From a bacterium (GTDB lineage: Bacteria > SAR324 > NAC60-12): a stretch of 33,684 nucleotides of DNA. Under the pieces are notes generated by a model, which was given only the letters and a program-made list of their open reading frames with translations, was not told the origin of the DNA and did no database searches. The position numbers and the translations under genes are program-made. Below are positions 9,484-30,662 of this stretch, one piece after another. How positions within the stretch are numbered: the first letter of the stretch is position 1; each line of letters starts with the position of its first letter. The stretch is taken from the NCBI GenBank assembly GCA_965233585.1, contig CBDDTI010000493.1, positions 1-33,684 on the forward strand. The letters are read 5' to 3'.

Positions 9484-9641
9484 AAAAAATGTAAAAAAAG
9501 TTGATTCAGTGAAGTTTTCTAAACTAATATCATAGCAGTATAACAAATCAAAATTTATTCATTAAAAAAAAATAACAGTCCAAAAAGCCAGTTTATATAT
9601 TGTTAATTGCTTCACTTTTCTCAACAGTATCAACACATAAT

Positions 9642-9830
9642 TACCTCATTCAATTTTTAAAAATCATAGCAGTCAAAGCATACTTACCTCATTCAATTTT
9701 TCAAAATCATAGCAGTCAAAGCATACTTACCTCAGTCAATTTTTCAAAATTATAGCAGTCAAAGCATACTTACCTCATTCATTCTTTCAAATTCATCAGT
9801 CAAAAGCATTATTACCTTATTCATTTTACA
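9642..9830. repeat. Subterminal 43-bp tandem repeat x~4.5 (TACCTCATTCAATTTTTCAAAATCATAGCAGTCAAAGCATACT)
   Basis: Units start at ~9642, 9685, 9728, 9771 and 9813; mirrored at ~29587-29772. Confidence 0.9.
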
Positions 9831-9835
9831 AAATC

Positions 9836-10150
9836 CTATCCATCAACCGTTCCTAAATTCCTTTTATGCTTCTCTGTTTTTAAATGTCTTGAATAACAGT
9901 GTGCCTTCATTGATGAATTACATACATTACAAAAGGCAACTTTATCACGATAGTTTTGTATTTGTTCCTGTTTCTTTTTTCTATATTCTTCATCTTCTTT
10001 ATATTTAGTTCTTCGTGTTTCATTCACTTTATCTTTATGTTTGTCATAGTTCTTTCTCTTGTATTCCAAGCATGTCTTACAAGTCTTCAATCCATCTTCA
10101 AAATTATCAATTGGTAAATCTTTAACACAATATCTACAAAATTTATCCAT
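9836..10150 (-). CDS. 104-aa zinc-finger protein (N-terminal CxxC..CxxC, charged helix, C-terminal C2H2)
   Basis: CRYC...CKTC and CNVC...RHLKTEKH; intact ORF, mirrored at 29261-29575. Confidence 0.75.
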   Translation of the reverse strand: MDKFCRYCVKDLPIDNFEDGLKTCKTCLEYKRKNYDKHKDKVNETRRTKYKEDEEYRKKKQEQIQNYRDKVAFCNVCNSSMKAHCYSRHLKTEKHKRNLGTVDG

Positions 10151-10343
10151 TACATATAAATATGATTATCTTCTTAAATGTCTTTTCCAAGAATTCCTAT
10201 AACAACCAAAAAACAAAAACAAACCAAGCGAAGAACAACATAAAAAAAAAACAATAGACAACAATAAACATTATTCCCTACCCTTTAATAACCCTATCTT
10301 ACAAATCCATAATTCAAAATAAATAAATCTTATTAGAAATATG

Positions 10344-10907
10344 TTAGTAGTAAATATCTTCAATAATTATCAATTCAAAATGAAATGCTTGTATTCCTAT
10401 TATACTATCTTTATCTTGGTCTTCTTCTATGTCGGTATTTATTTCTTCATCTGCTTTATTCAATACATCTTCTATATTATCTTCATCTACATATTCATCA
10501 AAGTCATGCATGAAGTAAATTTCTCTATAACTAAATTCATTGTCTCCATATTCTTTATCTGGGAGTTTTGCTACTATTTGGACTTCAATATCAAGTTTAA
10601 CTCTAAAATTTAAATTATCTTCTTCTACTTCTTCATAAATCAAAGATAGTAATTCTTCTTTTTCTTCTGTTATGATGTTTCCTATACTTTTTAAACCAAA
10701 TGGCACTCCCTCTCTCACAATACAGTATTCAATTACATATTTTTTTCTTGGTTTCAAATGTCTTGCTATTTTAGGACCAAATCTTGATATTTTATGTTTG
10801 TTCCGTATTCTCTTCAATGCTTCACTATGCTTTATTGTCAAATATTTAGGGTCTCCAATTTTATAAGGAACGATCTTACGCAACGCATCAACAGGCAAAC
10901 CCTTCAT
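10344..10907 (-). CDS. 187-aa hypothetical element protein (basic N-half, acidic C-half)
   Basis: Intact ATG-initiated ORF divergent from pPolB; mirrored copy at 28498-29062. Confidence 0.7.
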   Translation of the reverse strand: MKGLPVDALRKIVPYKIGDPKYLTIKHSEALKRIRNKHKISRFGPKIARHLKPRKKYVIEYCIVREGVPFGLKSIGNIITEEKEELLSLIYEEVEEDNLNFRVKLDIEVQIVAKLPDKEYGDNEFSYREIYFMHDFDEYVDEDNIEDVLNKADEEINTDIEEDQDKDSIIGIQAFHFELIIIEDIYY

Positions 10908-11033
10908 ACAATTCGTCTTATAAAAACTTATATAAATAACTTAGTCTTTCAGTATATATTCCAAGATTAAAATGTAGAATTCTTTGAAAAACTACTTAAA
11001 GATAAATCAACTAAATAAAATATATACTATTAT

Positions 11034-13809
11034 ATGATGAAAAAGGTTATAAACTATTTATTCAGGAATGATTTAGCAGAAATACCAAAACGAGGAAGAA
11101 GAGAATTAAAGTCAATAATAATAGATGATAAGAAATTCAGATACAACAAAGACAAACCAATATCTAGTGTCTTAACAAAGAAACTACTGACGGTCAAGAA
11201 AACTAATGAATACAGAAGTTATGCTTTAAACAAGGCAAAAGATGCGTTCAGCGAAGGAAGAGTGAGACAAATACTAACCAAACACGCAATCAGAAATAAA
11301 TTTAGGGTCAGAGATATTCAATCAGCATTTAGAAGATACGCTAATTCAATAGTTTTAGAAAATAAACACTTTCAAGGAGAAAGGGGATTAGAAATGATTT
11401 CGCACCAAAAACAAAGACTATCATATTTTTTAAGAAATAATAGAAGCATGAAACTTAACATAAGAACGGAAGGATTATTTGAAAAACCTGAATTTGATGA
11501 TGGAGGAAATGAATTAGGAAGTCAGGAACTTGTATATGCCCTACCATCAACCCGCTTCAATATTAGTAATGAGGATGAACTGACGCAAGCATTAAAGACA
11601 GTGTTAAACAAATCTTATTACAAATACAGAATTTAGAAGCATCAGCATCCAATTTAAGATTTAAGAAGATTTTGAGAATAACCATTCACTATGACAAATA
11701 TGACCCAACAAGAGCAGGGAGATACATAGAATTACCTGAATGGATTAAGCTAAAAAAGGCATGGATCAACATAAAGAACAGAGACCAAAAATGCTTCAAA
11801 TACTGTATTCAATCCGTAGTCTATGACAAAATAAGCAGACACCACCCAGAGGAAATGTTCCACTATAATAAACTGAAAGATGATATTTTGAACTGGGATG
11901 CGTCATTGGATAAGTTAGTTAGACTAAACAAATATGAAGGAAATGAAAAGATTAAAGATTGGGAAACTCGTTTCAGATATACATGCACCAACCCATATAT
12001 CAAATCTAAAACTGATTTGAATTTGCTGACTGATAAGGGTGTATATCCCTATGACTACATGAACTCATGGGAGAAATTCGATGAAACAAAACTACCAAAG
12101 AAAGAATATTTTTACAGCAAATTATATGAAGAAAACATAGCTGACAAAGACTACACCAGAGCAAATATTGTATGGAAACATTTTAACATTAAAAACCTTG
12201 GTGAATATCATGATTTGTATTTGATGACTGATGTATATTTACTGACTGATGTTTTTGAAAATTTTAGGGACATGTGCTTGAACTATTATGGATTAGACCC
12301 AGCATATTACATCACTTTACCTAACTATTCTTGGAATGCCTTTTTATCATTGACAGGAGTTAGACTGCAACAAATACACATAAAAGAAATGTATGAGATG
12401 ATTGAACATGGATTAAGAGGAGGAATGACACAGTGCTCCTTCAAGAAAGTAGGGGCAAACAATAAATACATGAATGAAGATTATGATAAATCTAAACCTT
12501 CATCATACATAAGTTATTTAGATGCTAATAACCTTTACGGATTAGCAATGTGTAAGAAACTGCCATATGGTGATTTTAAATGGCATTGCGGTAGAATGGA
12601 TGAAAAGAGAGTATTGAAATATTGTGATGATGATGACATAGGATACATATTAGAAGTTGATTTAGATTATCCAAAAGAACTACATGATTTACATAAAGAC
12701 TATCCATTAGCACCTGAAATCATGAGTATCAATGAGAATATGCTTTCAAAAGTCCAGAAGGATATACACAAATACTTTTATGGAAAAGATGCCAGTGATG
12801 AAAAGACAAATAAGTTAGTATTAAATGTAATGGATAAAAAGAAGTATGTTTTGCACATATCAGCATGGAAATTCTATCTGCAACACGGATTACGTCTTAA
12901 AAAAGTCCAGAGAGCAATAAGTTTCAAACAAGCAAACTTCTTAAAACCATTCATTGAATTCAACACTGAAAAGAGAAAGAATGCCAACAATGACTTTGAA
13001 AAAAATTGTTTAAGTTAATGAATAATAGCGTATACGGCAAGACCATGGAGAATGTAAGAAAGCATGGTGATTTTGAAATTGTCAATACGCCTGAACGCTT
13101 CCAAAAACTGGTAAATAAACCGCTATTCAAGCACAGACATATCATAAATGAAGACCTTGTAATTGTTGAAAAAGATAAACACACAGTGGAACTAAGCAAA
13201 CCTATCTATATGGGTATGTCTATTTTAGACTATTCTAAAATTCACATGTATTCCTTCTATTATGATGTTTTGAAACCAAAATATCAAGATAGTATTAAAT
13301 TGGTCTATACTGATACTGATAGTTATGTAATCAAAGTTGAGACTGATGACTTATATGAAGACTTTGTGGAGATAAATGAATACATGGATTTCAGTGATTA
13401 TCCAGCAGAACATCCAAATCATGATAAATCAAACAAGAAGGTATTAGGGAAATTCAAGGATGAAATGAACGGTAAAATAATTACTCACTTTATAGGATTG
13501 AAACCAAAGGCATATTGTTATAAAGTATATGGTGATGAGAAGGAACACAAGAAAAGTAAAGGGGTAGTCAAGCATAAAGTGAGCAATCAGTTAAGTTACA
13601 AAACGTATGAAGGGACATTGAATAGAAACTGTAAAGAAGAAGTCAGTTTTAACACTATCAGAAGTAAGAACCATCAAATTTATAGCATTAATCAGACTAA
13701 ATATGCTTTAAGCAACTACGACAATAAACGCTACTGGTATTCAGATTTTGAAAGCCTCCGGTTTGGACACTATGCCATAGAATATCTACATAACGAAAAG
13801 ATGATTTAA
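11034..13809 (+). pseudogene. Protein-primed family B DNA polymerase (Polinton-type pPolB), left copy; two frameshifts and a ~1-kb in-frame deletion
   Basis: Motifs GRYIELPEWI, KGVYPYDY, YLMTDVYLL, GLRGG, YLDANNLYG (motif A), KLMNNSVYGK (motif B), YTDTDS (motif C). Frameshifts near 11597 and 13003; deletion junction at 11900/11901. Confidence 0.93.
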
Positions 13810-14385
13810 GATATATGGATATAAATTCAACAACTGAAAAATTATGTCAAAGAATGGCAAGACATAGAAGAGCTTATAAATATTGTTTATAAACAATACA
13901 AACCCCCACAAACACCATCCTAACTCAATGAAATCGTTTGATGAGTTCGGTCTTGAAAACTGCAAACTAGTTCTTATTGCAGAATACCCATGCCAAAACA
14001 GAAAGCAACTCGAAAAGAAAGAAGGTGGATATATTGAAAATGATAAGAACGGTCTTAACAGATGTATTGCTGGTCGGACTTGAATGGAAGATTGCGGCGC
14101 CACAGGAGAGCATCACCTTCAACAGTAAAACATATCAGAATAGAGAATATTGAAAAATACAAAGAAAAAGACAAACGGCATCATGAGAACAATAAAAATA
14201 AAATACAAGAAAAAAAGACGAAACACTACAAAAATGAGGAGAAATATTGCGAGAAGAACTCAAAGCATAGAGAAGGAAACAGAGAAACATTGAGGCAAAC
14301 ACAAAGAAAAAGATACCAAAGAGAGAAAGATAAGATAAATGCAAAAAGAAGAGAAAGGCAAAAACAGAAGAAAGAACAACAACTA
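13802..14385 (+). pseudogene. GIY-YIG endonuclease remnant with charged coiled-coil tail
   Basis: STTEKLCQRMARHRR...FDEFGLENCKLVLIAEYPCQNRKQLEKKEGGYI...NRCIAGRT resembles GIY-YIG proteins of large eukaryotic DNA viruses and polinton-like viruses. The N-terminal GIY/YIG motifs are eroded and there are internal stops. Confidence 0.7.
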
Positions 14386-15331
14386 CTAATCAACCAAAAG
14401 CAGCTCATGCCTATTATACCTTTTACTCATTTCATTCCATCTAGTTTATAGTATCTGTTATTCATCATATCAGGACCAACTAAAATCACTTTGTATTTCC
14501 TTTCACTCCACTGACTTCTAGTTTCCTTCCTTGATACATAGTTGCCCTTTCCTTTATCAAATATCTTAACATAATCTCCTTCACTTATGTTTGGATATTT
14601 TCTGTTATGCTTTTCTTTCAGTATCAGATTTGTTCTGACCTGAATTACGTTATCAAGATTGTGCGCATTATTTGGTGTTGTCTTGGTGCTACTGTGGATT
14701 TGGTTGTTGTATCTATTCAATGATGGCTTTAGCACTTCCTCCAATGTTTTGGTTTTGTAATGCCTCAATCTATCCCCAATCATTTTTTTGACCGTGCGTA
14801 TCATCCTTTCTGCCTGATTTGCATGCGTCTTTGTTATTACGTGTCTGTTATACCTTCCTGCTTAAAAAATGTTTGCAGTTTCTTGCTGTTCAACGCTCCT
14901 TCGTCGTCGCTGTAAATCGACAAAGGCTGACCTAATACCTTGAAACACTCCATGACTGCTTTATAAACGTCATCACCATCTTTATTCTCGATAGGGACTA
15001 TGTGACATTTTTTGCTGAATATATCTATGCATATTAAACCATATCTTAATTGACTTTTGATTTCAGAACCTACGTCTCGCAACAAACTGGTAACATCCAT
15101 CAAGTCAATTTGGAATTCATACTTGGGAAACGGAGCAGTGTAGGAATTGTAGTTCTTGTAGTTTCTTGTTTGCTTGTTCGGCTGCGCCCTCATCCATGTA
15201 GATACCATCTCCGAAGTTATGCCTACATCGACTTTCCTAACCTTTTCGTATAAGTCCCTCACCGAACCGAAGCCCTCGTCCACGTCGTAGTATATTCTTT
15301 CCAATACCTTTTCTTTTTCCAATCTTGCCAT
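14386..15331 (-). pseudogene. RVE (retroviral-like DDE) integrase, Polinton-type, left copy; frameshifted
   Basis: FQIDLMD, YGLICIDIFSKK, IYSDDEGAL, AERMIRTVK and an SH3-like tail GDYVKI...WSERKYKV...RHELLLV. Lesions: +2 near 14840 and a 5-bp duplication near 14430. Confidence 0.92.
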
Positions 15332-15390
15332 TAAAAATATTTAGATTATAATTTTATGATATGTTCTTGCATCATAAAATCATAGTGAAC

Positions 15391-15741
15391 TCAAACCAAG
15401 AACCTTTGGCACTTCTTCGTTTTCTTGTGCTTTGCCAAGTTTGATTTACAACTTAAGTCAGAACCGCATATATCGCATACGCACGGTTGTTTCGTTCTCT
15501 CTTGGTAATATCTTTGGAAATACTTTTCGTCGTTCGGTTTTCTGTTGTAATATCCGTCATCTTGTTTTCTCCATTCAGCATTGGTGTTTTTGTTAACTGA
15601 TGAGTTTGCTTAGTAGCTTTCTTCAGATGAAGATGTTTCGCTGTCAATGAGTTCTTTGTTGCCAAAACCGTTCCAAATAAAGTCAAAGGTTTGATTTGTC
15701 ATCGGGATTTCAACTCCACTACTTACCAGGTAACAAGGCAT
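15391..15741 (-). pseudogene. C2H2-type zinc-finger protein, left copy with an in-frame stop
   Basis: Same 351-bp length as the intact copy at 22804-23154; AAA>TAA at ~15610. Confidence 0.75.
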
Positions 15742-16074
15742 ACTGCAAATATAGTTAATTATATATCTCAATATTTGTCTAAGTTTGTTTATACTATGTA
15801 TATCAGTTTGTGCTTGTGGCATCTCGTACAAGTCCTTAACACAACCCCAAAACAGTTTCGACATCAAAGTTTATAGGTTTGAGCATTTTACCCTTCCAAC
15901 TCCACCGGTTGACTTATTTTTAGTGACACCCAGTCCTAAACCCTCAAAAATCCAAACCCAAACATGCTTAGCGTTCAAAACAGTGAGACTTGGGCTTTGT
16001 CCCAAGCCAATCCAAAAACCAAACCAATTTTCCACCAAACCGCACCAGTTTGTCCCAAAAAAAGGAGCCTGTTT

Positions 16075-16470
16075 TTCCAAAAACGGAGCTTCCCAAAAAC
16101 GGTGACGGATTTCCCCAAAATCGGTGGCAGATTTTCCCAAAATCGGTGACGGATTTCCCCAAAATCGGTGGCAGATTTTCCCAAAATCGGTGACGGATTC
16201 AGTGGCAGATTTCCTCAAAGTCTGTAACGGATTTTCCCAAAATCGGTGGCAGATTTTCCCAAAGTCGGTGACGGATTTCCCCAAAGTCGGTGACGGATTT
16301 CCCCGAAAACGGAGCCAGTTTTTATCAAAAACGAAGCAAGTTTGTTCCAAAATTGGTGGCTGATTTTCCCAAAGTCCCTGGCTGATTTCCTCAAAGTCGG
16401 GTGACTGGTTGCCTCAAAATCTGTGACGGATTTCCCCAAAATCGGTGTTAGATTTTCCCAAAAATTGCCC
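16075..16470. repeat. 22-bp unit array (AAAATCGGTGGCAGATTTTCCC / AAAATCGGTGACGGATTTCCCC) near the inner end of the left arm
   Basis: Alternating 22-mers are directly visible and explain the overlapping ORFs in all frames. Confidence 0.9.
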
Positions 16471-18126
16471 GCAAATCTCCACAAATCCTCAAATACCGAA
16501 CCAGCTTTCCCAAAAGCGAACCAATTTATTGCCCAAAACCGGAGCCATTTTTTTGGCTCGAACAGAGCCAGTCTTTCCCTAAAACGTATTTTCTGTTGTT
16601 GCTTCAATTTAGGATAAGCACACACAGTCCAAAAGGATAAGAAAACCAGAAAGAAGAACTGTATTCCACAAATTTTCTCCGGATTTTCCTTCGATTTTCC
16701 ATCTAAAACTATTTTCCCTCTTGTCATTGGCAAAAGTCAAAACGACAACGGCGCTTGCGTGCACAAAGCCATCCGTCAAACCAATCACCACTTCCATGAG
16801 TTTTTGCCACTCCATTTTGTGTTTGTGCCACGTTTGGGTGAAACTCTGCGCTGAACAGCTCTGTGGCTTCTGTACCAGCCGCTCACCGTTCGGTTGTGGC
16901 AAATTGCCTCTTCAACTCGTTATTTCCCAGTTTGATATGCCGCCTTTGTATCTTTATATCATCATCCCCTTTACAAGAATAACAATTAAAATCCCACAAT
17001 GACAAAACCAAAGTGCAAAGCTTGCCACAACAAAACATATTACGCATCTTACAATGGAGAAGATGCAAATGCACGGAGCATGGAATGACACCGTCCAATG
17101 CTCACAGTGGGGCCAGAAAGAGCCTCACAAAGCAAAACTGCTTCAAGATGCACCATTTAGCAAACAAAAGCACTGCCACACTGCACACGTTGCTCAAAAA
17201 CAAGCCAGCCTCTATGGAATGAGGTATCCATAGCAGTCCAACCTGAATGATTGGTTGACCCCTGCAATTTTGCAAGGCGTTTGTAACAAGCAAATAACAA
17301 TATTGACATGGCTGATTGCAAATCACCAATTGTCTCAGCAAGATGCCAGCCTCTACGGCACAATGTAGCCATAAGGAGTGTCTTCAACAAGGCACTCGTC
17401 ACAAGGATTAACACGTTCTACTGAGGGGAGGACTTGGAGGCACCGCGTTCAATGGAAGCTTCTTCGTCTTCATTGCTCCAGTTGCCGTCCTGCGGAGAAG
17501 GCATTCAAACTAGAAAGAACTCACCAAACACAAACTGGCAGGTCATCGACGCAACTGCAACTAGCAAAGAAGTTGCTGGCACAGACAACGGCGCGTCCTC
17601 TTGGCTAAATATTTCTATCTTCGACGGTGCAATGGCTAGTTCTTCTTCTTTCTTGATCGCCTCAGAGCAAAACAAGCTTTCAATCACTACTTTGTTTGTC
17701 TTCTACTCAACGTCAACTAAGGCACAGCATTGCACATGAACGCAAAACCATGAACTCACAGCACATGTTGTAGATGCGGACGCTCCGCTTTACATGTGTC
17801 ATTTCTCTTCTGAAAAATTCCCACAACAAGATGAAAGAAATTCCGTTTGAGGTCTGCACCTTCTTCAAATATGCCTGACGACGTTCAAGTTGAGATACAC
17901 AACATCTTATCCAAATTCAAATCCAGACCAAGCATGCACTAAAAAGCGTTCAACAAATACATGTCGGGAATGCGATATTTTGAGGCACTGGGTCGATTGG
18001 GAAAGGATTGCCGACGAGTTCAAAGCCACCCTTGTCGTCCTGCAAGGTCAGCAACCAAGACATTCAAATTCAACCTCTTCTAGCCTTGTGCTACTGGCTT
18101 GTGCTACTGGCATTTACTTACCAAAG

Positions 18127-19420
18127 GGCACAGCAAAGGAACAAGGGCATGGCAGAAAACATACAAAGTCTTTCGTCTAAAACCTCTCCATGAATGAAAG
18201 TAATATTTTGTAAATATCGCTCAACAAACCCTGAGGAATAAATATGCTAGCGTTTTATGTATAAAACATTTACTTCCCTCAAAAGAACATGGCAAAGGAA
18301 CAAGCAAAGGGCAGAGAAACAACATCTTGCGTCTAAGTCCTTTCGAAGTTGAATATTGGAAGACATCCAAATAAACAACAATGTAATCCCCCAACAGTCC
18401 TGAAACAAAACGTGACAAGGCAAAGGATGCCAAAATGAAATCTCTTGATGAAGTTTCGGCTGAACAAACCACCTGTATTTTAACCTAACACTAGTCAGAG
18501 GATCTTCGAAGGGAACAATGGCATCAACTGTTGCAGTGGCTCTTGCAAATAACAATGCTTTTGACGCTTGAGTGGGAGAAATGATGGAACACAACCCTAC
18601 CTTTATCAACAGGACCAATCCAGACCGGTTTTAGCACACGAACCGCGCAAAGCAACACATGAAAGGAACACATATAGGGATGACAAGGCTGCTTGTTCAA
18701 CACTTGCTGTATCGCTCACAAGGTGAGATGTTGAGGTGGGAACAGGGAAATGGACATACCAAAGCAACAAGGGTATGGCAGAAAACATACAAAGTCTTTA
18801 GTCTAAATCCTCTCTTTCAAATTGAGGAAGATGTTTGGAATACATCTTTTAACAAATCCTGAGGAATGAACAACCCTGTTATCTACCCCCAAAAAGTCCT
18901 GAGCCGTGTCAAGAACATAAAAATGACACAGTAGTATTTTGCATAGCGGGCTTGCCCTTAATCACGCTTTTAGTTTGGGGCATGGCAGAAAAACATACAC
19001 ACCTGACAAAATTTCACAGCAAAGGAACAAGGGCATGGCAGAAAAACATACAAAGTCTTCAGTCTAAATCCTCTCTATCAATCGCAGGAAGATTATTGGA
19101 ACATATGTTTAAACAAATCCTGAGGAATGAACAACCCTGCAATCTTCCCCCCTAAAAGTTATGAACCCTACCAAGTTCGTGGGGCATGGCTTTTCGTCAA
19201 TAAAAGTTCTTCCTACACCTGACAAAAGGGCACGGCAAAGGAACAAGGGCATGGCGGAAAATCATACCAAGTCTTTAGTCTCAAACATGTCTATCAATTT
19301 GAGGAAAATGTTGGTAAGATATCATTCAACAAATCCTGAGGAATAAGCAACCCTGCAGTATACTCCTGAGAAGTCCTGAGCCCTACCAAGAAGATACAAT
19401 GTCACGGTAGTGTCTTGCGT
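18127..19420. repeat. Five degenerate direct repeats (~110-200 bp) in the central spacer
   Basis: CAAAGGAACAAGGGCATGGCAGAAAACATACAAAGTCTT..TCTAAA..AACAAATCCTGAGGAAT recurs at ~18127, 18290, 18758, 19016 and 19229. Confidence 0.8.
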
Positions 19421-20179: not shown

Positions 20180-21572
20180 CTAGTTTGTGAAACACCGTCC
20201 TGATGTTGGCAAAGGAATGTTCTGGAGCTCATGGGCAATCAGCAGCTTCGTGTGATAAGACGATGGGATGACAGCCCATTTTTTATCTGCGCCAGTGAAG
20301 ATGGTGGGTAAACCGAAGGTGATGGAATTCTTGTCGATGAACCCGCCCAGGTTCTCCTCCGCAATCATTTTAGCACCTTCGTCCACCTTCACATCCTCCA
20401 CCAAAGAGAAGCCTTCCTTGGCGATGTTCTCGAGGTGAGCCCTCGCCGCTGCATTTTTCACACAGGAAGGCAGCCCGGGACATCGCACAACTGCAAAGGG
20501 GTCGAAGTTATCCTTCTTCCGAATGAGGCTCTCCAAAGCCTGCTTGGTGGTGAAAATGTCCCCGCCGAAGTACTCATAGAACATCTCTGCCAAGTCTTTG
20601 TCCATGCCCCAATCATCCTTCAGCATCTTGAGCATGTCTGACTCTGGCACTTCGCCGATGACAATGACTTTGCCTATGTCCCTGAGGTCTAACCCTGCAG
20701 CTTGCAGGCGGAAGGGATACCCAAACTCTGAGGAGATGAGGACTACGCTCGACAGCATGTCTTGCTTTGTCCATTTTGTTATCGCGGCCAAAGCTGACTT
20801 GGCTTCGCGCCTCTCCCCACTATCCTGTCCATTTGTCAAGCCGGGTAGTGCAAGGTTTGCCTCGTCGACCACAATTGCAGTTTTTTTTTGATTTTTTGCC
20901 CACCATCTTTAGAAATTCATCCAAAGCAGACCTGACCTTTTCCGTTTTATCTGCAACAAGTCGCACAAATGCATCCTTCACAGAATTGGAGATAGGAACT
21001 GCTGCAGGACCGAGGCCTTCAAAAGCCACTAAACCTGCAGAAAAAATCGCCGAAAGTGCAGGAAGGACCACTGCTTTGAGGTCCTGCCCCTCTTCAGTCC
21101 TGTTAGCAACTTGTAGCAATGCATGCAGCAAATTTGCTCCAGGTTTGTTTCTCATGTCCTCTGAGAGGACCACCAAGTTTGAGCTACACCTTTGCAGCGC
21201 AGCTTCTTTGAGAAATGATTTTCCCAAATTCTTGCCACCCAAGACACAGGTGAGCACTCCTGTCTGCTCCATTGACAATATCAATTCCTCTATTGCCTTA
21301 CTTCTGTCGACATTTTTTTTGGAATTCATGTGACCGTTTGCAAGCGCGACAATTCTCTCCATATAGGTCTCGGCATCAGTCTTGTTCCTAGTGGCGGCTT
21401 GTTGCACCGCTACCCAAAAACCTTTTGCCTCACCCGAGTCAACACTAGGTAGAACGCGCAGCTTCACTGATCGCGGTTGATTTCTTGTTGCCCCTGTTGT
21501 CAAAAAGCATGCAACCACACTTGCTCAAAGGACACATGCGAGTGCACCACGCCATTTGCGTGAGCCGGACAT
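20180..21572 (-). pseudogene. Intronless P-loop NTPase (archaeal-ATPase/STAND-like), interrupted
   Basis: Walker A LGGKNLGKS. Removing one A from the A9 run at 20881-20889 joins the two ORFs through KTAIVVDEAN (Walker B), followed by VVLISSE. An in-frame upstream ATG at 21572 gives MSGSRKWRGALACVL*ASVVACF, a hydrophobic leader with one TGA. Confidence 0.8.
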
Positions 21573-22279
21573 CTCATGAAGTGTAGTCAAGAGTATTCAA
21601 ATAACTTGAAAAGGTTCATCAAATTGCAACAAATCATGCGAAAGGTTGACCATGCAAAATCTCTGAGCGTCTTTACACATCTCTGTGCACGTATCGGGAA
21701 CTAAGGTTGATATTACTGACTGCGCTCATACCACTGATAGTTTGAACACTAAGTTCCGTGACTACAATGAGGTTTAACGAGAAACAAATTCCAGCGTGCC
21801 CGAAAAACAGTGAATATTGTAATGTCCAAAGTTTGCAGTTGTCAGCGGAGAAATTCTAACACTTGCAGTGGCTTGAAGAGAAAGGACGGCACAGACAGAA
21901 ATACAAAACGCGTGAAAAACAAATCCAACTTGTTTGGTTATAAAATCCACAGGTTTTGGAAATGATATCATGAAACCCATGCAGTCTGGAAATGAAATCC
22001 ACCGGCTTAGGAGATTGCATCCAAAGGCTTGGAAACTAAATCCATTTGGAAATGACATCCTTGAAAATGAAACGAGAAAGCACATGTGTTCAAGCGTGCG
22101 AACATAATCTTAGTCCAATTTTGCTGTTTTTTCCAAATTCTATTGTTTCATTCGGATATGGAGCGCGCCTGTGTGTGCTTATCCTAAATTGAAGCAACAA
22201 CAGAAAATACGTTTTAGGAGAAGACTGGCTCTGTTCGAGCAAAAAAACTGGCTCCGCTTCTGGGCAATAAATTGGTTCG

Positions 22280-22500
22280 GTTTCTAAGGAAAATCAGCCA
22301 CCGATTTTGGGGAAATCCGTCACCGACTTTGGGGAAACCAGCCATCGACTTTGGGAAGCTCCGTTTTTGGGAAAAACAGTTTCCGTTTTTGGGAAAAACA
22401 TGCTCCGTTTTTTGGGAAAAAACATGTTCCGTTTTTGGGAAAAACATGCACCGTTTTTGGGACAAAGTGGCTCCGTTTTTGGGAAAAAGCGGGTCGGTTT
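22280..22500. repeat. ~21-22 bp unit array (CCGTTTTTGGGAAAAACATG..) near the inner end of the right arm
   Basis: Directly visible; a different sub-unit is expanded than in the left arm. Confidence 0.85.
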
Positions 22501-22803
22501 GGGGGGGGAAAATTGGCTCGGTCTTTGGATTGGCTTGGGACAAAGCTTAAGTCTCACTGTTTTGAACGCTAAGCATGTTTGGGTTTGGATTTTTGAGGTT
22601 TTAGGACTGGGTGTCACTAAAAATAAGTCAACCGGTGGGAAGTTGGAAGGGTAAAATGTTCAAACCTATAAACTTTGATGCTGAACCTGTTTTTGATTTT
22701 GTGTTAGGTACCTTTATGAGATGCCACAAGCACAAACTGATATACATAGTATAAATATATTTAAACAAATATTAAGATATACAACTAACTATATATACAC
22801 AAT

Positions 22804-23154
22804 ATGCCTTGTTACTTTGTAAGTAGTGGAGTTGAAATCCCGATGACAAATCAAACCTTTGACTTTATTTGGAACGGTTTTGGCAACAAAGAACTCATTG
22901 ACAGCGAAACATCTTCATCTGAAGAAAGCTACAAAGCAAACTCATCCGTTAACAAGAACACCAATGCTGAATGGAGAAAACAAGGTGACGGATATTACAA
23001 TAGAAAACCGAACGACAAAACATATTTCCAAAGATACTACCAAGAGAAAACGAAACAACCGTGTGTATGCGATATATGCGGCTCTGCCACGAGCTGTAAA
23101 TCAAACTTGGCAAAACACAAGATAACCAAAAAGTGCCAGAGGTTCTTGGTTTGA
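22804..23154 (+). CDS. 116-aa C2H2-type zinc-finger protein
   Basis: YYQEKTKQPCVCDICGSATSCKSNLAKHKITKKC; intact ORF directly upstream of the integrase. Confidence 0.78.
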   Translation: MPCYFVSSGVEIPMTNQTFDFIWNGFGNKELIDSETSSSEESYKANSSVNKNTNAEWRKQGDGYYNRKPNDKTYFQRYYQEKTKQPCVCDICGSATSCKSNLAKHKITKKCQRFLV

Positions 23155-23212
23155 GTTCACTATGATTTTATGATACAAGAACATATCATAAACTCTAATC
23201 TAAGTATTTTTA

Positions 23213-24148
23213 ATGGCAAAATTGGAAAAAGAAAAGGTATTGGAAAAAAAAAATTACGACGTGGACGAGGGCTTCGGTTCGATGAGGGACTTATACGAAA
23301 AGGCGAGGAAAGTCGATGTGGGCATAACTTTGGATATGGTATCTACATGGATGAGGGTGCAACCGAACAAGCAAACACGAAACTACAAGAACTACAATTC
23401 CTACACTGCCCCGTTTCCCAAGTATGAATTCCAAATTGACTTGATGGATGTTACCAGTTTGCTGCGAGACGTAGGTTCTGAAATCAAGTCAACTAAGATA
23501 TGGTTTAGTTTGCATAGATATATTCAGTAAAAAATGTCACATAGTCCCTATCGAGAATAAAGATGGTGATGACGTTTATAAAGCAGTCATGGAGTGTTTC
23601 AAGGTATTAGGTCAGCCTTTGTCGATTTACAGCGACGACGAAGGAGCGTTGAACAGCAAGAAACTGCAAACATTTTTAAGGAGGAAGGTATCACACACGT
23701 AATAACAAAGACGCATGCAAATCAGGCAGAAAGGATGATACGCACGGTCAAAAAAATGATTGGGGACAGATTGAGGCATTACAAAACCAAAACATGGGTG
23801 GAAGTGCTAAAGCCCTCGTTGAATAGATACAACAACCAAGTCCACAGTAGCACCAAGACAACACCAAATAATGCGCACAATCTTGATAACGTAATTTCGG
23901 TCAGAACAAATCTGATACTGAAAGAAAAGCACAGCAGAAAATATCCAAACAGAAGTGAAGGAGATTATGTTAAGATATTTGATAAAGGAAAGGGCAACTA
24001 TGTATCAAGGAAAGAAACTAGAAGTCAGTGGAGTGAAAGGAAATACAAAGTGATATTAGTTGGTCGTGATATGATGAATAACAGATACTATAAACTAGAT
24101 GGAATGAGTAAAAGGTATAATAGGCATGAACTGCTTTTGGTTGATTAG
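23213..24148 (+). pseudogene. RVE integrase, right copy; frameshifted
   Basis: Same motifs as the left copy. Lesions: -2 near 23487 and -1 near 23676. The two copies give a 939-bp (312-aa) consensus. Confidence 0.92.
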
Positions 24149-24731
24149 TAGTTGTTGTTCTTTCTTCTGTTTTTGCCTTTCTCTTCTTTTTGCATGTATC
24201 TTATCTCTCTCTCTTTGGTATCTTTTTCTTTGTGTTAGCCTCAATGCTTCTCTGTTTCCTTCTCTATGCTTTGAGTTCTTCTCGCAATACTCCTCCTCAT
24301 TTTTGTAGTGTTTCGTCTTTTTTCTTGTATTTTATGTTTATTGTTCTCATGATGCCGTTTGTCTTTTTCTTTGTATTTTTCAATATTCTCTATTCTGATA
24401 TTTTTTACTGTTGAAGGTGATGCTCTCCTGTGGCGCCGCAATCTTCCATTCAAGTCCGACCAGCAATACATCTGTTAAGACCGTTCTTATCATTTTCAAT
24501 ATATCCACCTTCTTTCTTTTCGAGTTGCTTTCTGTTTTGGCATGGGTATTCTGCAATAAGAACTAGTTTGCAGTTTTCAAGACCGAACTCATCAAACGAT
24601 TTCATTGAGTTAGGATGGTGTTTGTGGGGGTTTGTATTGTTTATAAACAATATTTATAAGCTCTTCTATGTCTTGCCATTCTTTGACATAATTTTTCAGT
24701 TGTTGAATTTATATCCATATATCTTAAATCA
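24149..24731 (-). pseudogene. GIY-YIG endonuclease remnant, right copy
   Basis: The 66-aa ORF at 24450-24650 is identical to 13883-14083. Confidence 0.7.
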
Positions 24732-27700
24732 TCTTTTCCTTATGTAGATATTCTATGGCATAGTGTCCAAACGGGAGGCTTTCAAAATCTGAATACCAGT
24801 AGCGTTTATTGTCGTAGTTGCTTAAAGCATATTTAGTCTGATTAATGCTATAAATTTGATGGTTCTTACTTCTGATAGTGTTAAAACTGACTTCTTCTTT
24901 ACAGTTTCTATTCAATGTCTCTTCATAAGTTTTATAACTCAACTGATTACTCACTTTATGCTTTACTACTCCTTTACTCTTCTTATGTTCTTTATCATCA
25001 CCATATACTTTATAGCAATATGCCTTTGGTTTCAATCCTATAAAGTGAGTAATTATTTTACCGTTCATTTCATCCTTGAACTTGCCTAATACCTTCTTAT
25101 TTGTTGTGTCATAGTTTGGATGTTCTACATTATAATCACTAAAATCCATATATTCATTAATCTCTTTGAAGTCTTCATATAAGTCATCAGTCTCAACTTT
25201 GATTACATAACTATCAGTATCAGTATAGACCAATTTAATAGTATCTTGATATTTTGGTTTCAAAACATCATAATAGAAGGAATACATGTGAATTTTAGAA
25301 TAGTCTAAAATAGACATACCCATATAGATAGGTTTGCTTAGTTCCACTGTGTCTTTATCTTTTTCAACAATTACAAGGTCTTCATTTATGATATGTCTGT
25401 GCTTGAATAGCGGTTTATTTACCAGTTTTTGGAAGCGTTCAGGCGTATTGACAATTTCAAAATCACCATGCTTTCTTACATTCTCCATGGTCTTGCCGTA
25501 TACGCTATTATTCATTAACTTAAACAAATCTTTTTCAAAGTCATTGTTGGCATTCTTTCTCTTTTCAGTCTTGAATTCAATGAATGGTTTTAAGAAGTTT
25601 GCTTGTTTGAAACTTATTGCTCTATGGACTTTTTTAAGACGTAATCCGTGTTGCAGATAGAATTTCAATGCTGATATGTGCAAAACATACTTCTTTTTAT
25701 CCATCACATTTAATACTAACTTATTTGTCTTTTCATCACTGGCATCTTTTCCATAATAGTATTTGTGTATATCCTTTTGGACTTGTGAAAGCATATTCTC
25801 ATTGATACACGTTCTTTTGAATAATCTAAATCAACTTCTAATATGTATCCTATGTCATCATCATCATCACAATATTTCAATACTCTCTTTTCATCCATTC
25901 TACCGTAATACCATTCATTCATGTATTTATTGTTTGCTTCTACTTTCTTGAAGGAGCACTGTGTCATTCCTCCTCTTAATCCATGTTCAATCATCTCATA
26001 CATTTCTTTTATGTGTATTTGTTGCAGTCTAACTCCTGTCAATGATAAAAAGGCATTCCAAGAATAGTTAGGTAAAGTGATACAATATGCTGGGTCTAAT
26101 CCATAATAGTTCAAGCACATGTCCCTAAAATTTTCAAAAACGTCAGTCAGTAAATATACATCAGTCATCAAATACAAATCATTATGTTCACCAAGGTTTT
26201 TAATGTTAAAATGTTTCCATACAATATTTGCTCTGGTGTAGTCTTTGTCAGCTATGTTTTCTTCATATAATTTGCTGTAAAAATATTCTTTCTTTGGTAG
26301 TTTTGTTTCATCGAATTTCTCCCATGAGTTCATGTAGTCATAGGGATATACACCCTTATCAGTCAGCAAATTCAAATCAGTTTTAGATTTGATATATGGG
26401 TTGGTGCATGTATATCTGAAACGAGTTTCCCAATCTTTAATCTTTTCATTTCCTTCATATTTGTTTAGTCTAACTAACTTATCCAATGACGCAGTTAAGA
26501 AAGCAAAACTATCTTTAAACTGACAAGCGCCAAATGAAAAGGTTATAAACTTTTCGCTGTTTTGTGCTATTGCATCTATTCTTTTGTTTTGGTTTAGTTC
26601 TATGTTTAGTTCATTTGCTTTTGCTATGATTAAGTGCGCGTCATAGTTTTTAAGATTGTGAAAGAAGATAGGGATTTTAAAATATCTATATAAATGAATA
26701 ATCCAGATTACATTTTACATGCGCTGCGCCTCTGTATTTGCCTGTGAAGTGGCAGTGGTCGCGAACCTTTTCATCGTCAGGTTGGAATTTCTTATTACAT
26801 ATCGAGCAGCGGGTTGCTTGTTTAAATTCTGTCTTTTGTTGAAAAGTTAGTTTATCCATTGGTTCATTGACATTCATTTTTGCAAATATATCTTGCTCAA
26901 TTTCCGTCAGTTTCTCTACAAAGTGTTTCATACAATCCTCACCCCTGTATAAATACGGTTTGCAAGTATTATCAATCCTGCTTACAACATTCAACATATA
27001 ACCGCAAGGTTTATGTTCCTGATATGTGCCTTTTATACCATTTTTAGAGTTAGTCGTTAGACATTCAAAATCACCATAGATTACAAAAGGACGAGGCAAT
27101 TTAGTATTATGCTTTTCAAATTCTATATAGGTGTCTTTATCTGGCATCTTTGTTTGTTGTCCTTCTGATGCCATACATCCGTTTTCAAGATGTTTCTTAT
27201 ATACCTTTTCTGATTGAAAGGGATTTAAACAATGGTGGCAGTAAAACTTTTTATTTGTGTTGCTACTGCTTTGACCGTTTAATAATCTACATTTATTTTT
27301 AACTAATACGTAGTGATAATTATTATCTTCATCATAGATTTTTAGTAAATCAATTTCGTATTTAGCATTTCTATTTTTAGTGCCTCTATGCAATATAATC
27401 TTATTATCATTTAAGCTGTCATCGGGTTCAAACACATTTATTGAAACTGATTTATTGTTCTCTTCAAATCTGTCAATGTCCCTATTGCCAGTTGGAAAAT
27501 GTACACCATCTCAGTTCAAAATATCATCTTTCAGTTTATTATAGTGGAACATTTCCTCTGGGTGGCGTTTGCTTATTTTGTCATAGACTACGGATTGAAT
27601 ACAATATTTGAAGCATGTTTGGTCTCTGTTCTTTATGTTGATACATGCCTTTTTTAGCTTAATCCATTCAGGTAATTCTATGTATCTCCCTGCTCTTGTT

Positions 27701-28371
27701 GGGTCATATTTGTCATAGTGAATGGTTATTGTCAAAATCTTCTTAAATCTTAAATTGGATGCTGATGCTTCTAAATTCTGTTGTAATAAGATTTGTTTAA
27801 CACTGTCTTCTAATGCTTGCGTCAGTTCATCCTCAGTACTAATATTGAAGCGGGTTGATGGTAGGGCATATACAAGTTCCTGACTTCCTAATTCATTTCC
27901 TCCATCATCAAATTCAGGTTTTTCAAATAATCCTTCCGTTCTTATGTTAAGTTTCATGCTTCTATTATTTCTTTAAAAATATGATAGTCTTTGTTTTTGG
28001 TGCGCAATCATTTCTAATCCCCTTTCTCCTTGAAAGTGTTTATTTTCTAAAACTATTGAATTAGCGTATCTTCTAAATGCTGATTGAATATCTCTGACCC
28101 TAAATTTATTTCTGATTGCGTGTTTGGTTAGTATTTGTCTCACTCTTCCTTCACTGAACGCATCTTTTGCCTTGTTTAAAGCATAATTTCTGTGTTCATT
28201 AGTTTTCTTGACCGTCAGTAGTTTCTTTGTTAAGACACTAGATGTTGGTTTGTCTTTGTTGTATCTGAATTTCTTATCATCTATTATTATTGATTTTAAT
28301 TCTCTTCTTCCTCGTTTTGGTATTTCTGCTAAATCATTACTCAATAAATAGTTTATAACCTTTTTCATCAT
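24724..28371 (-). pseudogene. Polinton-type pPolB, right copy. Retains the vOTU-like region, C2H2 finger, exonuclease and endonuclease-VII-like insert but lacks motif A
   Basis: Motifs NIKNRDQTCFKYCI...HYVLVKN, CHHC..KKHLENGC, FVIYGDFEC (ExoI), CSIC..VRDHCHFTGKYRGAAHVKCN, FFHNLKNYDAHLI (ExoII). Stops at 27973 and 27511, a 4-bp insertion at ~26690, and 102-bp and 43-bp deletions. Confidence 0.94.
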
Positions 28372-28497
28372 ATAATAGTATATAATTTATTTAGTTAATT
28401 TATCTTTAAGTGGTGTTTCAAAGAATTCTACATTTTAATCTTGGAATATATACTGAAAGACTAAGTTATTTATATAAGTTTTTATAAGACGAATTGT

Positions 28498-29062
28498 ATG
28501 AAGGGTTTGCCTGTTGATGCGTTGCGTAAGATCGTTCCTTATAAAATTGGAGACCCTAAATATTTGACAATAAAACATAGTGAAGCATTGAAGAGAATAC
28601 GGAACAAACATAAAATATCAAGATTTGGTCCTAAATAACAAGACATTTGAAACCAAGAAAAAAATATATGTAATTGAATACTGTATTGTGAGAGAGGGAG
28701 TGCCATTTGGTTTAAAAAGTATAGGAAACATCATAACAGAAGAAAAAGAAGAATTACTATCTTTGATTTATGAAGAAGTAGAAGAAGATAATTTAAATTT
28801 TAGAGTTAAACTTGATATTGAAGTCCAAATAGTAGCAAAACTCCCAGATAAAGAATATGGAGACAATGAATTTAGTTATAGAGAAATTTACTTCATGCAT
28901 GACTTTGATGAATATGTAGATGAAGATAATATAGAAGATGTATTGAATAAAGCAGATGAAGAAATAAATACCGACATAGAAGAAAACCAAGATAAAGATA
29001 GTATAATAGGAATACAAGCATTTCATTTTGAATTGATAATTATTGAAGATATTTACTACTAA
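28498..29062 (+). pseudogene. Right copy of the 187-aa hypothetical protein; 1-bp deletion near 28635
   Basis: Starts MKGLPVDALRKIVPY at 28498; the C-terminal part matches 10344-10907. Confidence 0.7.
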
Positions 29063-29260
29063 CATATTTCTAATAAGATTTATTTATTAGAATTATGGAT
29101 TTGTAAGATAGGGTTATTAAAGGGTAGGGAATAATGTTTATTGGTGTCTATTGTTTTGTTTTTTTTTAATGTTGTTCTTCGCTTGGTTTGTTTTTGTTTT
29201 TTTGGTTGTTATAGGAATTCTTGGAAAAGACATTTAAGAAGATAATCATATTTATATGTA

Positions 29261-29575
29261 ATGGATAAATTTTGTAGATACTGTGTTAAAGATTTACCAA
29301 TTGATAATTTTGAAGATGGATTGAAGACTTGTAAGACATGCTTGGAATACAAGAGAAAGAACTATGACAAACATAAAGATAAAGTGAATGAAACACGAAG
29401 AACTAAATATAAAGAAGATGAAGAATATAGAAAAAAGAAACAGGAACAAATACAAAACTATCGTGATAAAGTTGCCTTTTGCAATGTATGGAATTCATCA
29501 ATGAAGGCACAATGTTATTCAAGACATTTAAAAACAGAGAAGCATAAAAGGAATTTAGGAACGGTTGATGGATAG
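29261..29575 (+). CDS. Right copy of the 104-aa zinc-finger protein (C>W in the C-terminal finger)
   Basis: Differs from the left copy at CNVW (vs CNVC) and AQC (vs AHC). Confidence 0.72.
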   Translation: MDKFCRYCVKDLPIDNFEDGLKTCKTCLEYKRKNYDKHKDKVNETRRTKYKEDEEYRKKKQEQIQNYRDKVAFCNVWNSSMKAQCYSRHLKTEKHKRNLGTVDG

Positions 29576-29586
29576 GATTTTGTAAA

Positions 29587-29772
29587 ATGAATAAGGTAAT
29601 AATGCTTTTGACTGCTATGAATTTGAAAGCATGAATGAGGTAAGTATGCTTTGACTGCTATGATTTTGAAAAATTGACTGAGGTAAGTATGCTTTGACTG
29701 CTATGATTTTGAAAAATTGAATGAGGTAAGTATGCTTTGACTGCTATGATTTTTAAAAATTGAATGAGGTAA
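29587..29772. repeat. Subterminal 43-bp tandem repeat, right arm
   Basis: Reverse complement of 9642-9830. Confidence 0.9.
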
Positions 29773-29930
29773 TTATGTTTTGATATTGTTGAGAAAAATG
29801 AAGCAATTAACAATATATAAACTGGCTTTTTGGACTGTTATGTTTTTTTATTGAATAAATTTTGATTTGTTATACTGCTATGATATTAGTTTAGAAAACT
29901 TCACTGAATCAACGTGTTTTACATTTTTTT

Positions 29931-30365: not shown

Positions 30366-30662
30366 TGAAACAAATGAATATCCATTTGGTGAATACAAAT
30401 TCAATGATAATATTGATGAAAAAAATGAAAGTACATTTGGTGACTACAAATACAATGATCATATTGATGAAAAAAGAATGATAAAGGAAATGAAAAAATG
30501 ATAAAATAATTGAAGTAATATTAAAATCATCTGTCCCTGCTAGAGGCTGAAAGATTTTTATAAATTTAATCTATCTTAATATGATTTAATTAGTATAGGC
30601 AATATAAATAAGTCATGATGAGTCTGGCATGTGGCGTGATATGCTTCCAAATGCTGCTGTGC

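Follow-up and report, generated by a model that had tools for sequence, protein, structure and literature searches.

The element, its arms and its insertion site

The window analysed here is the entire contig CBDDTI010000493.1 (33,684 nucleotides; C493 below) of assembly GCA_965233585.1, a 12.0-Mb, 747-contig bin classified as bacterial, whose contigs are named in the form C### throughout. Its DNA appears to come from a Symbiodiniaceae dinoflagellate, as set out in the last section. The window carries at 9485-29930 a palindromic element of 20,446 bp, whose boundaries could be placed exact to 1 nt. Two long inverted arms, each with the same six genes, among them a predicted protein-primed family-B DNA polymerase (pPolB) and an rve-type integrase, enclose a unique centre bearing a gene for a predicted AAA+ ATPase, and a 6-bp target-site duplication, CACCCA, flanks the whole unit. 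The features of the element, in window coordinates and with open reading frames abbreviated as ORFs, are as follows.

9479..9484, left copy of the target-site duplication CACCCA, in the host minisatellite; placed by empty-site reconstruction against the satellite unit 9372-9431
9485..16627, plus strand, left arm, 7,143 bp, 27-37% G+C; six genes and an inner 22-bp array
9636..9835, subterminal 43-bp tandem repeat, 4.7 copies; mirror copy at 29576-29783
9836..10165, minus strand, 109-aa zinc-ribbon-like ORF (DZR E 0.0012, below the cut-off); right copy at 29246-29575, plus strand, 98% identical
10344..10940, minus strand, 198-aa ORF specific to the palindromic family; right copy at 28465-29062, fragmented
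11019..13809, plus strand, left polymerase pseudogene in three frames, without about residues 315-611 of an intact 1,261-aa relative
14059..14451, plus strand, 130-aa K/E-rich ORF; right copy at 24077-24474, minus strand
14427..15340, minus strand, left rve-type integrase in two frames, split near 14850
15409..15741, minus strand, C2H2 zinc-finger ORF; right copy at 22801-23136, plus strand
16083..16463, 22-bp tandem array, about 17 copies, at the inner end of the left arm; also in C315 and C606
16628..22168, unique centre, 5,541 bp, 42-48% G+C
18121..19366, non-coding repeats (about 216-261 bp each), conserved in the centre of C606 and, inverted, in that of C315
20180..21524, minus strand, Orc/Cdc6-like AAA+ ATPase gene (PF01637 / AAA_22), predicted, in two frames overlapping at 20820-20908
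22169..29930, minus strand, right arm, 7,762 bp, reverse complement of the left arm
22291..22488, 22-bp array of the right arm, about 9 copies
23204..24148, plus strand, right integrase pseudogene in three ORF pieces
24724..28386, minus strand, right polymerase pseudogene spanning residues 1-1260 of the intact relative, with 2 in-frame stops and 2 frame changes
26494..27506, minus strand, 1.0-kb block with the polymerase N-terminal part and an endonuclease-VII-like motif, absent from the left arm
29931..29936, right copy of the target-site duplication CACCCA

The flanks have a G+C content of 39-50%. A sequence-only reading made before this analysis had described 9484-16627 and 22169-29930 as reverse complements with six genes in common. 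At least 25 collinear inverted pairs bear out the arms at these positions, and the gene count proved correct by ORF and homology comparison, with the order, from the outside inward, of 109-aa ORF, 198-aa ORF, polymerase, 130-aa ORF, integrase and zinc-finger ORF. The arms are, however, not identical, and they diverged partly under selection: they agree at 96.3% of the aligned positions with 1,460 gap columns (MAFFT). BLAST identities of the left arm to the reverse-complemented right arm were 97.7% (2.4 kb), 98.8% (0.58 kb), 93.6% (3.5 kb) and 93.9% (final 115 nt). Identity declines from 97.4-99.6% in the outer 3 kb through 95.6-98% in the middle to about 93% at the inner end. Most of the gap between the arms is the ~1.0-kb block found only in the right arm, and since this block is present in C315, C606 and the metagenome locus L022, the left arm has undergone a deletion.

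Both flanks consist of a CCAGCC/CCCACCC minisatellite, in equal orientation on either side and in register. To reconstruct the empty site, 0-9 nt were deleted and the terminal 29 nt of the left flank fused to the right flank. All 60 bases of the satellite unit 9372-9431 were restored at one offset only, which removes the last T of the element plus CACCCA, and the remaining offsets tried (0-6, 8 and 9) left 12-25 mismatches of 60. The single satisfying offset therefore defines an element at 9485-29930 with a 6-bp target duplication, which is the duplication size of Polintons/Mavericks. The bin yielded no empty-site allele. On both sides of the insertion, outside the C-rich satellite, lie A-rich AAAAATGA-type repeats (9044-9258 and 30365-30475), and the target region is therefore a compound satellite.

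The termini are runs of A/T (5 A at the left, 7 T at the right), and reiterated ends serve the 'sliding-back' initiation of protein-primed replication. The outer terminus of the left arm begins AAAAATGTAAAAAAAGTTGATTCAG, the element termini carry AAAAAATGTA, and the terminal motif (AAAAATGTA / TACATTTTT) occurs inside the element only at its outer ends, 9485 and 29920. Comparison of the outer 400 nt with the reverse complement of the inner 2 kb gave a best local score of 25, against a maximum of 28 in 30 shuffles. With neither an inner terminus nor an inverted match, a single arm is therefore not an element in itself. The earlier reading had held that the arms lack end repeats of their own and that the replication and integration module itself forms the inverted repeat; both statements stand, with end sequences at the outer ends of the unit only. 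The copies at L022 and C315 end in ...TACATTTTT(T) followed by C-rich CCCCA-like tracts, so that such tracts adjoin all three known ends (window, L022 and C315), too few to speak of a target preference. A dispersed repeat family in the bin (C39, C70, three times in C176, C220, C243, C347 and C575) ends ...AATAATTGTTTTATTATACATTTTT followed by CAC..., its last bases being those of the element terminus; it might represent one end of a related or derived element.

For the polymerase, at least 7,946 relatives were found at E <=1e-5 among the 8,000 candidates scored; the full-length ones measure about 1,250 aa, many with precomputed PF03175 and PF02945 domains. Within an alignment of 24 family members, PF03175 was recognized in seven (best E 2.9e-13) and the endonuclease-VII model in 13, and the window's own pieces fell below Pfam significance for PF03175. 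The window polymerase is 91-95% identical to three uninterrupted proteins of 1,259-1,262 aa from other public assemblies (P0049, P0058 and P0048), and the left translation contains DANNLYGLAM, NSVYGKT and YTDTDS, which we take to be polymerase motifs. Judging from these matches, the polymerase consists of an N-terminal extension and a putative protein-primed family-B polymerase with an endonuclease-VII-like insert. The integrase matched PF00665 with E 6.3e-7 (30.0 bits against a gathering cut-off of 32.6), and the stretches QIDLMD, YSDD and NQAER, presumably holding the catalytic D, D and E, are kept in the family alignment, pointing to a retroviral-type rve (DDE) integrase such as defines Polintons. 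It is uninterrupted in the right arm of C606, in L022 and in L021. Searches of the PDB at sequence and profile level (C657 polymerase, C606 integrase and polymerase profile) returned nothing meaningful, and no relatives appeared in IMG/VR (integrase and a polymerase piece) or GTDB genomes (both queries).

Every polymerase and integrase copy of the window is broken, a point absent from the sequence-only reading. The window copy inserted as one unit and is now degraded and dead, with stops, frameshifts and the 1-kb deletion. At 14844, the frame-change site of the left integrase, all covering contigs were 2 letters shorter in three of four public runs; these contigs may derive from other copies.

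Other copies, the centre and the virion module

A bin-wide search with the arm matched three family-level loci, C493, C315 and C606, and in C657, C322 and C581 the polymerase only, at about 67%. All three family loci have inverted arms around a related centre, and the palindrome is thus not the one-off rearrangement that the earlier reading had named as a possible refutation. The arms of C315 (1-3406 against 12873-9449) are 98.1% identical, and those of C606 are 93.7% (1-2695 against 15565-12862) and 87.7% (5856-6515 against 12863-12199) identical. The inverted repeat of each stops at the equivalent of window 15784-15800, and C606 6515-9398 is collinear with window 15800-19482. If symmetrical, C315 would measure about 20.8 kb. 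A 3.2-kb stretch of C606 (2696-5855) holds a tandem array of about 2.3 kb (2930-5240, period about 214 bp) inside the left integrase. The bin contained no solo arm with two termini.

From metagenomes, 45 loci with the integrase were found, of which 13 were compared with the window and 14, at least 4.5 kb long, were checked for cargo and virion genes. L022 (12 kb) holds a full arm with the same kind of terminus, unrelated flanking DNA and 2 kb of homologous centre; L035 holds an arm and rearranged pieces of the centre; and L021, L023, L025, L042 and L043 are pieces of arms. No match to the ATPase, capsid, A32 or fibre genes was found among the 14 loci of at least 4.5 kb. At the three loci long enough to judge, palindromy holds in every case. 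The polymerase of L042 is interrupted by a 3.5-kb insertion (3118-6661). In L049 and L050 (6.8 kb, from other metagenomes), a distant polymerase (37-39% aa identity to C657) is directly followed by a co-oriented integrase (36%), so the adjacency of the two genes exists outside the palindromic family.

We weighed whether the assembly had joined two haplotypes or loci head to head via a shared repeat. The contig does come from a bacterial bin with about 6.9 Mb of eukaryote-like contigs, C315 and C606 start at one arm coordinate (window 12449-12456), so the assembler broke in the repeat, and the contigs of public runs do not span the arms. Yet the arms differ by 3.7% and a 1-kb indel, which a fold-back chimera of one sequence would not, one satellite continues in register across both flanks, and three contigs with different centres share the same design. 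Contigs of two runs from different studies moreover cross from the centre into the right arm, and the centre occurs in 20 runs of 12 studies. An artefact of this kind is hardly credible to us. In the four public runs whose contigs were compared, the summed depth on the arms was about 10-40 times that on the ATPase gene, a ratio that is not a copy number. No bridge of the left outer (9484) or left inner (16627) junction was present among the listed pieces of the four runs, several of which stop at 16595; stretches that lack cover are no evidence either way.

A rearrangement by the host, in which fold-back repair copied part of an ordinary insertion in inverted orientation, separately at each locus, would fit the repeat-rich and plastic genomes of dinoflagellates and the rearrangement of the centres between copies (inverted in C315, shuffled in L035). 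However, it would have to recur with an equal inner boundary and an equal centre at three loci, the 6-bp duplication and the unbroken satellite flank the complete palindrome, and the signature of purifying selection between arms, described below, is unexpected for dead DNA duplicated in place. We consider this explanation very improbable.

The centres of all three elements contain a homologous ATPase gene about 0.65-0.75 kb from one arm and reading away from it; in C606 the gene is intact (477 aa), in the window it is spread over two frames, and in C315 it is broken into pieces. Because all three share this gene and the non-coding repeats, we rejected the reading of the centre as mere host DNA between two insertions. 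The window ATPase has a Walker A stretch GGKNLGKS and a Walker B stretch VVDEAN, and the Walker A lysine (K105) and Walker B aspartate (D232) are invariant across 40 family sequences. PF01637 was recognized in 28 of these 40, AAA_22 in 12 and a Crinkler N-terminal domain in three. The C606 protein matched PF01637 with E 2.3e-6 (28 bits, below the cut-off of 33.2), and the window's two pieces matched nothing in Pfam at E <=0.01. The closest proteins to the window ATPase are P0263-P0265 (62-87% identical), and the C606 ATPase is 86-93% identical to P0182-P0187.

An AlphaFold model of the centre protein (predicted local distance difference test score, pLDDT, 78.3; predicted template modelling score, pTM, 0.77) had PAB2304, SSO1545 and Orc/Cdc6 proteins as its top structure matches (E 4.5e-7 to 7e-6, target TM-score 0.36-0.51), followed in rank by CED-4/Apaf-1, NLR proteins and TnsC. 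The model thus argues for a PF01637/Orc-Cdc6-like AAA+ ATPase with a predicted helical lid and a winged-helix-like C-terminal part, the latter suggested by whole-length Orc/Cdc6 matches. It is like the PF01637 'ATPase_2' proteins of Pyrococcus (PAB2304) and Sulfolobus (SSO1545) and Orc1/Cdc6 in fold, but shares with them only 10-14% sequence identity. The centre protein is not a packaging ATPase of the A32/FtsK type. The 22-bp arrays beside the gene look like arrays of binding sites, and the Crinkler domain on some dinoflagellate paralogues suggests a family of conflict systems and not a replication initiator. Within 20820-20851, in each of the four public runs a listed piece stops at 20820 or starts at 20851; the frameshift there may be either a variant or a mistake made in assembling the window contig.

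Capsid-bearing relatives in the same bin provided the reference for the virion module. C657 holds an ordinary element of about 21.6 kb (9671-31244 by the limits of its homology with C322), with the integrase at one end and the zinc-finger ORF and polymerase at the other; the polymerase gene is split into ORFs of 437 and 888 aa. Between the ends lie an A32 ATPase (Pfam E 2.5e-11), a cytosine-methylase-like ORF, a protein with an S74 chaperone domain and a 475-aa protein. The latter has 603 relatives and a double jelly roll fold in its model (pLDDT 83.7), whose best viral structure matches (E 4.4e-22 to 5e-16), where named, are the major capsid proteins of an ascovirus and of giant viruses; capsid proteins of virophages and adintoviruses rank lower. 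The polymerase of the palindromic family is 58-63% and its integrase 37-46% identical to those of C657 at the amino acid level. No inverted repeat of at least 400 nt was found by BLAST in C657, C322 or C581, and no terminal repeats were found in the ordinary relatives by short-word BLAST or local alignment (best score 25); their ends are set by homology limits only.

A capsid profile built from 39 sequences matched C657, C322 and C581 with E 4.9e-133 to 6.2e-132. On the palindromic elements, the same profile gave best E values of 5.6 and 5.9 for C493 and C606 and none below 10 for C315, and thus detected no major capsid protein of the Polinton or Polinton-like virus (PLV) type. In tblastn with all ORFs of at least 90 aa from the relatives, matches were confined to the polymerase, integrase and zinc-finger ORF and a single short ORF; no virion ORF of the relatives matched, the penton protein and protease not having been searched with profiles of their own and no fold having been modelled for the 198-aa and 109-aa ORFs. 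The palindromic elements therefore tested as capsid-less, for the major capsid protein and the virion ORFs of the relatives, in line with the earlier reading. That reading had further proposed unrelated cargo in place of the virion module. The replacement stands insofar as capsid genes are lacking, but the cargo is not arbitrary, consisting in all three elements of a conserved, very divergent AAA+ ATPase.

The relatives are themselves rearranged. A 6.1-kb segment with the packaging ATPase and capsid genes (C657 17600-23722, C322 9286-15345) is inverted relative to the polymerase and integrase ends, and the integrase-side end is also rearranged between these two contigs. C322 1-24063 and C581 429-24517 agree over 24 kb at 99.4%, flanks included, and represent the same locus or alleles. 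C581 also bears a direct duplication of about 10.8 kb (16093-26804 against 41210-55876, 97-99%) over the polymerase end.

Origin of the long inverted ends

Taken together, the window probably holds a degraded integrated copy of a distinct Symbiodiniaceae family of the Polinton/Maverick type, whose terminal inverted repeats (TIRs) have grown to 6.3-7.8 kb and comprise the whole replication and integration module. The centre of the family measures 5.5-7 kb and contains the 22-bp arrays, the non-coding repeats and the ATPase gene, and the virion module of the relatives is absent. The sequence-only reading had left a choice between a unit built from two half elements and a new family with giant TIRs. 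The second fits better because all three loci share the architecture and the 6-bp duplication flanks the whole unit, and two half elements fit less well.

As a possible course of events, an ancestor with the polymerase, integrase and ATPase near one end would have lost its other end including the virion module, and would have regained a terminus by inverted copying of the first end, by arm replacement or TIR expansion. The outcome would be two identical replication origins and integrase sites on an element of 20.4 kb, near the 21.6 kb of the relatives. Replication would start from the A/T-run termini by protein priming, insertion would be carried out by the element's own integrase, and the two arms would now and then, but not steadily, correct each other, starting at the ends and proceeding inward. 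The ATPase might serve as an accessory DNA-binding factor on the adjacent 22-bp repeats or be conflict-type cargo. Packaging by the capsid-bearing relatives is conceivable in principle but speculative, and the two families differ in their termini.

The history of the arms was examined in a tree on 3,049 aligned columns and by codon comparisons of the integrase (306-309 codons) and the C-terminal part of the polymerase (357-420 codons). The two arms are sisters in the window (support 100/99) and in C315 (100/100). Between elements, the ratio of nonsynonymous to synonymous divergence (dN/dS) was 0.06-0.17 for the integrase and the C-terminal part of the polymerase, at a synonymous divergence (dS) of 0.1-0.55, and was higher, up to 0.28, for the window right arm against C315 and L021. 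From these low ratios it follows that the family diversified while its polymerase and integrase worked. The arm pair of C315 showed few changes, near neutral (dS 0.006-0.021, dN/dS 0.43-0.72), as expected of decay after insertion.

Several observations speak against the giant-TIR family as we describe it. The arm pair of the window has dS 0.11-0.14 with dN/dS 0.24-0.26 and that of C606 has dS 0.21 with dN/dS 0.08; the arms were thus not identical at insertion, and homogenisation was at best occasional. Moreover, the C606 arms are not sisters, its left arm grouping with C315 (100/100), and the arms may be recombinant or separately derived. The three ATPases are only 28-42% identical, as opposed to 80-93% for the arms, a mismatch that a simple vertical history leaves unexplained. 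The polymerase is broken in all seven sequences compared with P0049 (window, C315, C606, L022, L025, L042 and L035). Both outer ends are present in the window only, C315 and C606 beginning within the left arm and the C606 right arm lacking its last ~750 bp, and the target duplication, placed on this one copy with both ends, sits in repetitive DNA. Six of the 13 metagenome loci compared (L038, L041, L044, L056, L058 and L065) are only arm fragments abutting DNA without a match in the window, L058 having no window match of 200 nt or more, and many copies therefore cannot be shown to be palindromic. Public contigs are short, and among the listed pieces only the right inner junction was bridged, by 41 nt, in two of four runs.

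The divergence of the arms under selection is the weakest point of the interpretation as true TIRs and keeps alive the alternative of a composite unit, in which two short capsid-less polymerase-integrase elements came to lie inverted around a host AAA+ gene and their outer ends mobilised the whole, after the manner of bacterial composite transposons. The host-like G+C content of the centre (42-48%, against 27-37% in the arms) would fit this origin, and so would an ATPase family that is widespread in Symbiodiniaceae gene sets, with some members fused to Crinkler domains. The two C606 arms, diverged under selection, have different nearest relatives, and ATPases as deeply divergent as these would be expected of repeated capture. 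However, a composite transposon should have two complete arms with two ends each, and the terminal motif is absent from the inner ends. An rve integrase could not cut and join one arm alone, since an arm has neither an inner terminus nor its own end repeats. The same end of the repeat in C315 and C606 and the same centre layout in all three elements point to one origin or a very regular process and not to chance pairs, and the bin yielded no solo arm with two termini. We therefore regard a composite origin as unlikely.

In two of three elements, the dN/dS values between arms indicate that the arms diverged mostly while the copy was still alive and under selection. We read this to mean that both gene copies were maintained and the arms were made alike only now and then. 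The likeness of the arms could stem either from mutual repair that proceeds inward from the ends, in keeping with the identity gradient of the window, or from recombination between co-resident elements.

A more far-reaching proposal, which we put forward tentatively and with considerable doubt, combines these points: the family might be a new class of element with a working polymerase and integrase in both ends, its virion module having been exchanged for a fast-evolving AAA+ cassette with iteron-like 22-bp arrays that is swapped between vehicles. If so, the cassette would be either an initiator-plus-origin system for replication or partition that permits persistence without a capsid, or a conflict gene of the Crinkler family spread through Symbiodiniaceae, and the element, if packaged at all, would rely on capsid-bearing relatives of about its own length in the genome they share.

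The closest known systems are Polintons/Mavericks, reportedly described as self-synthesising DNA transposons by Kapitonov and Jurka in 2006 and Pritham et al. in 2007. The element resembles them in its putative pPolB and rve integrase, terminal inverted repeats, 6-bp duplication, length of about 20 kb and G+C content below that of the host, and a TIR with a target duplication of the Polinton size of 5-6 bp was found in the one copy that has both ends, at a repetitive site. Unlike in Polintons/Mavericks, the inverted repeats are 6.3-7.8 kb and not hundreds of base pairs long, with the polymerase and integrase inside and hence duplicated, no virion module was found, and the centre consists of the Orc/Cdc6-like AAA+ ATPase gene and repeat arrays. 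Terminal repeats are known to expand by end replacement in defective adenovirus genomes, in the inverted terminal repeats of poxviruses and in the linear plasmids and chromosomes of Streptomyces. As in those replicons, one terminal region with genes inside is found inverted at both ends, with greater likeness near the ends; unlike those free replicons, the palindromic element was integrated, presumably by its integrase, with a target duplication. Capsid-less descendants of Polintons are said, in reviews by Krupovic and Koonin, to include linear pPolB plasmids of the cytoplasm and mitochondria as well as transpovirons. These likewise lost the capsid module and kept protein-primed replication and inverted ends, but they have no rve integrase or integration, and their short end repeats lack the polymerase. 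A linear pPolB plasmid would be a free molecule without an integrase, whereas this copy is integrated and encodes one.

Among published work, excerpts of 10.64898/2026.07.28.741278 mention the self-synthesis model of Polintons/Mavericks and use 'palindromic' for terminal palindromes of 52 nt. High copy numbers of Maverick-Polinton-like elements in Symbiodinium and Polarella are given in excerpts of PMC11957031, and a dinoflagellate PLV without an rve integrase, different from the palindromic family, in those of PMC12721341. The 'Dino group' of dinoflagellate elements comes from Bellas et al. (2023), whose survey, as excerpted (PMC10120064), detected elements via the capsid gene and annotated end repeats with settings tuned to short, high-identity matches. 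By such detection, capsid-less forms would therefore have been missed. The palindromic family shares with the Dino group, represented here by C657, C322 and C581, the host group, the bin and homologous polymerase, integrase and zinc-finger ORFs; the relatives differ in having the polymerase and integrase at opposite ends around a virion module (capsid, A32 and fibre-like S74). Neither polymerase-bearing giant repeats nor capsid-less Polinton derivatives appeared in our literature search, which left subscription journals and supplements outside.

Surveys based on capsid genes are thus blind to capsid-less derivatives in Symbiodiniaceae, where Maverick/Polinton-like elements abound. The family illustrates a route from a virus-like element to a capsid-less transposon or plasmid-like form, in which an inverted copy of one end would duplicate genes and free the centre for cargo. 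Three very divergent versions of one cargo gene family suggest cassette exchange, possibly tied to genetic conflict in coral symbionts. The family also offers material for studying how protein-primed elements keep long ends alike and why both gene copies stay under selection.

Host DNA in the bin

Of the 645 contigs of at least 5 kb in the bin, 564 (6.85 Mb) have low cover by long ORFs and 81 (4.73 Mb) are dense. The window flanks show sparse ORFs and microsatellites, and their ORFs had no Pfam matches at E <=0.01. Together with the low-ORF contigs, these features mark the contig as eukaryotic and binned alongside bacterial DNA. Where relatives of the centre protein have a named source, it is Effrenium voratum, Symbiodinium sp. 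CCMP2456 or a set of gene models with the prefix Skav or symbB, prefixes that we take to stand for Fugacium kawagutii and Breviolum minutum. Centre DNA was detected by 51-67% of sampled 31-mers in 20 public runs of 12 studies, mostly labelled coral metagenome. The host is, by these sequence affinities, a Symbiodiniaceae dinoflagellate, and the dinoflagellate setting given in the sequence-only reading was thus well chosen.

The dinoflagellate spliced-leader 21-mer was absent from the window at up to 3 mismatches and from the 12-Mb bin at up to 2; its 12-mer tail occurred seven times against 1.4 expected, three of these in one repeat family, and was uninformative. Scans of the window for tRNA and Rfam families gave no matches. 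The 198-aa ORF of the arms matched no Pfam family, and its best Atlas score of 0.82 gave no lead. In the left flank, a 653-aa ORF (461-2422, minus strand) had no Pfam match, no paralogue in the bin and a best Atlas score of 0.83, likewise giving no lead. The bin is rated 92.5% complete and 2.1% contaminated, yet contains about 6.9 Mb of eukaryote-like contigs; contamination scores based on markers miss this eukaryotic DNA.

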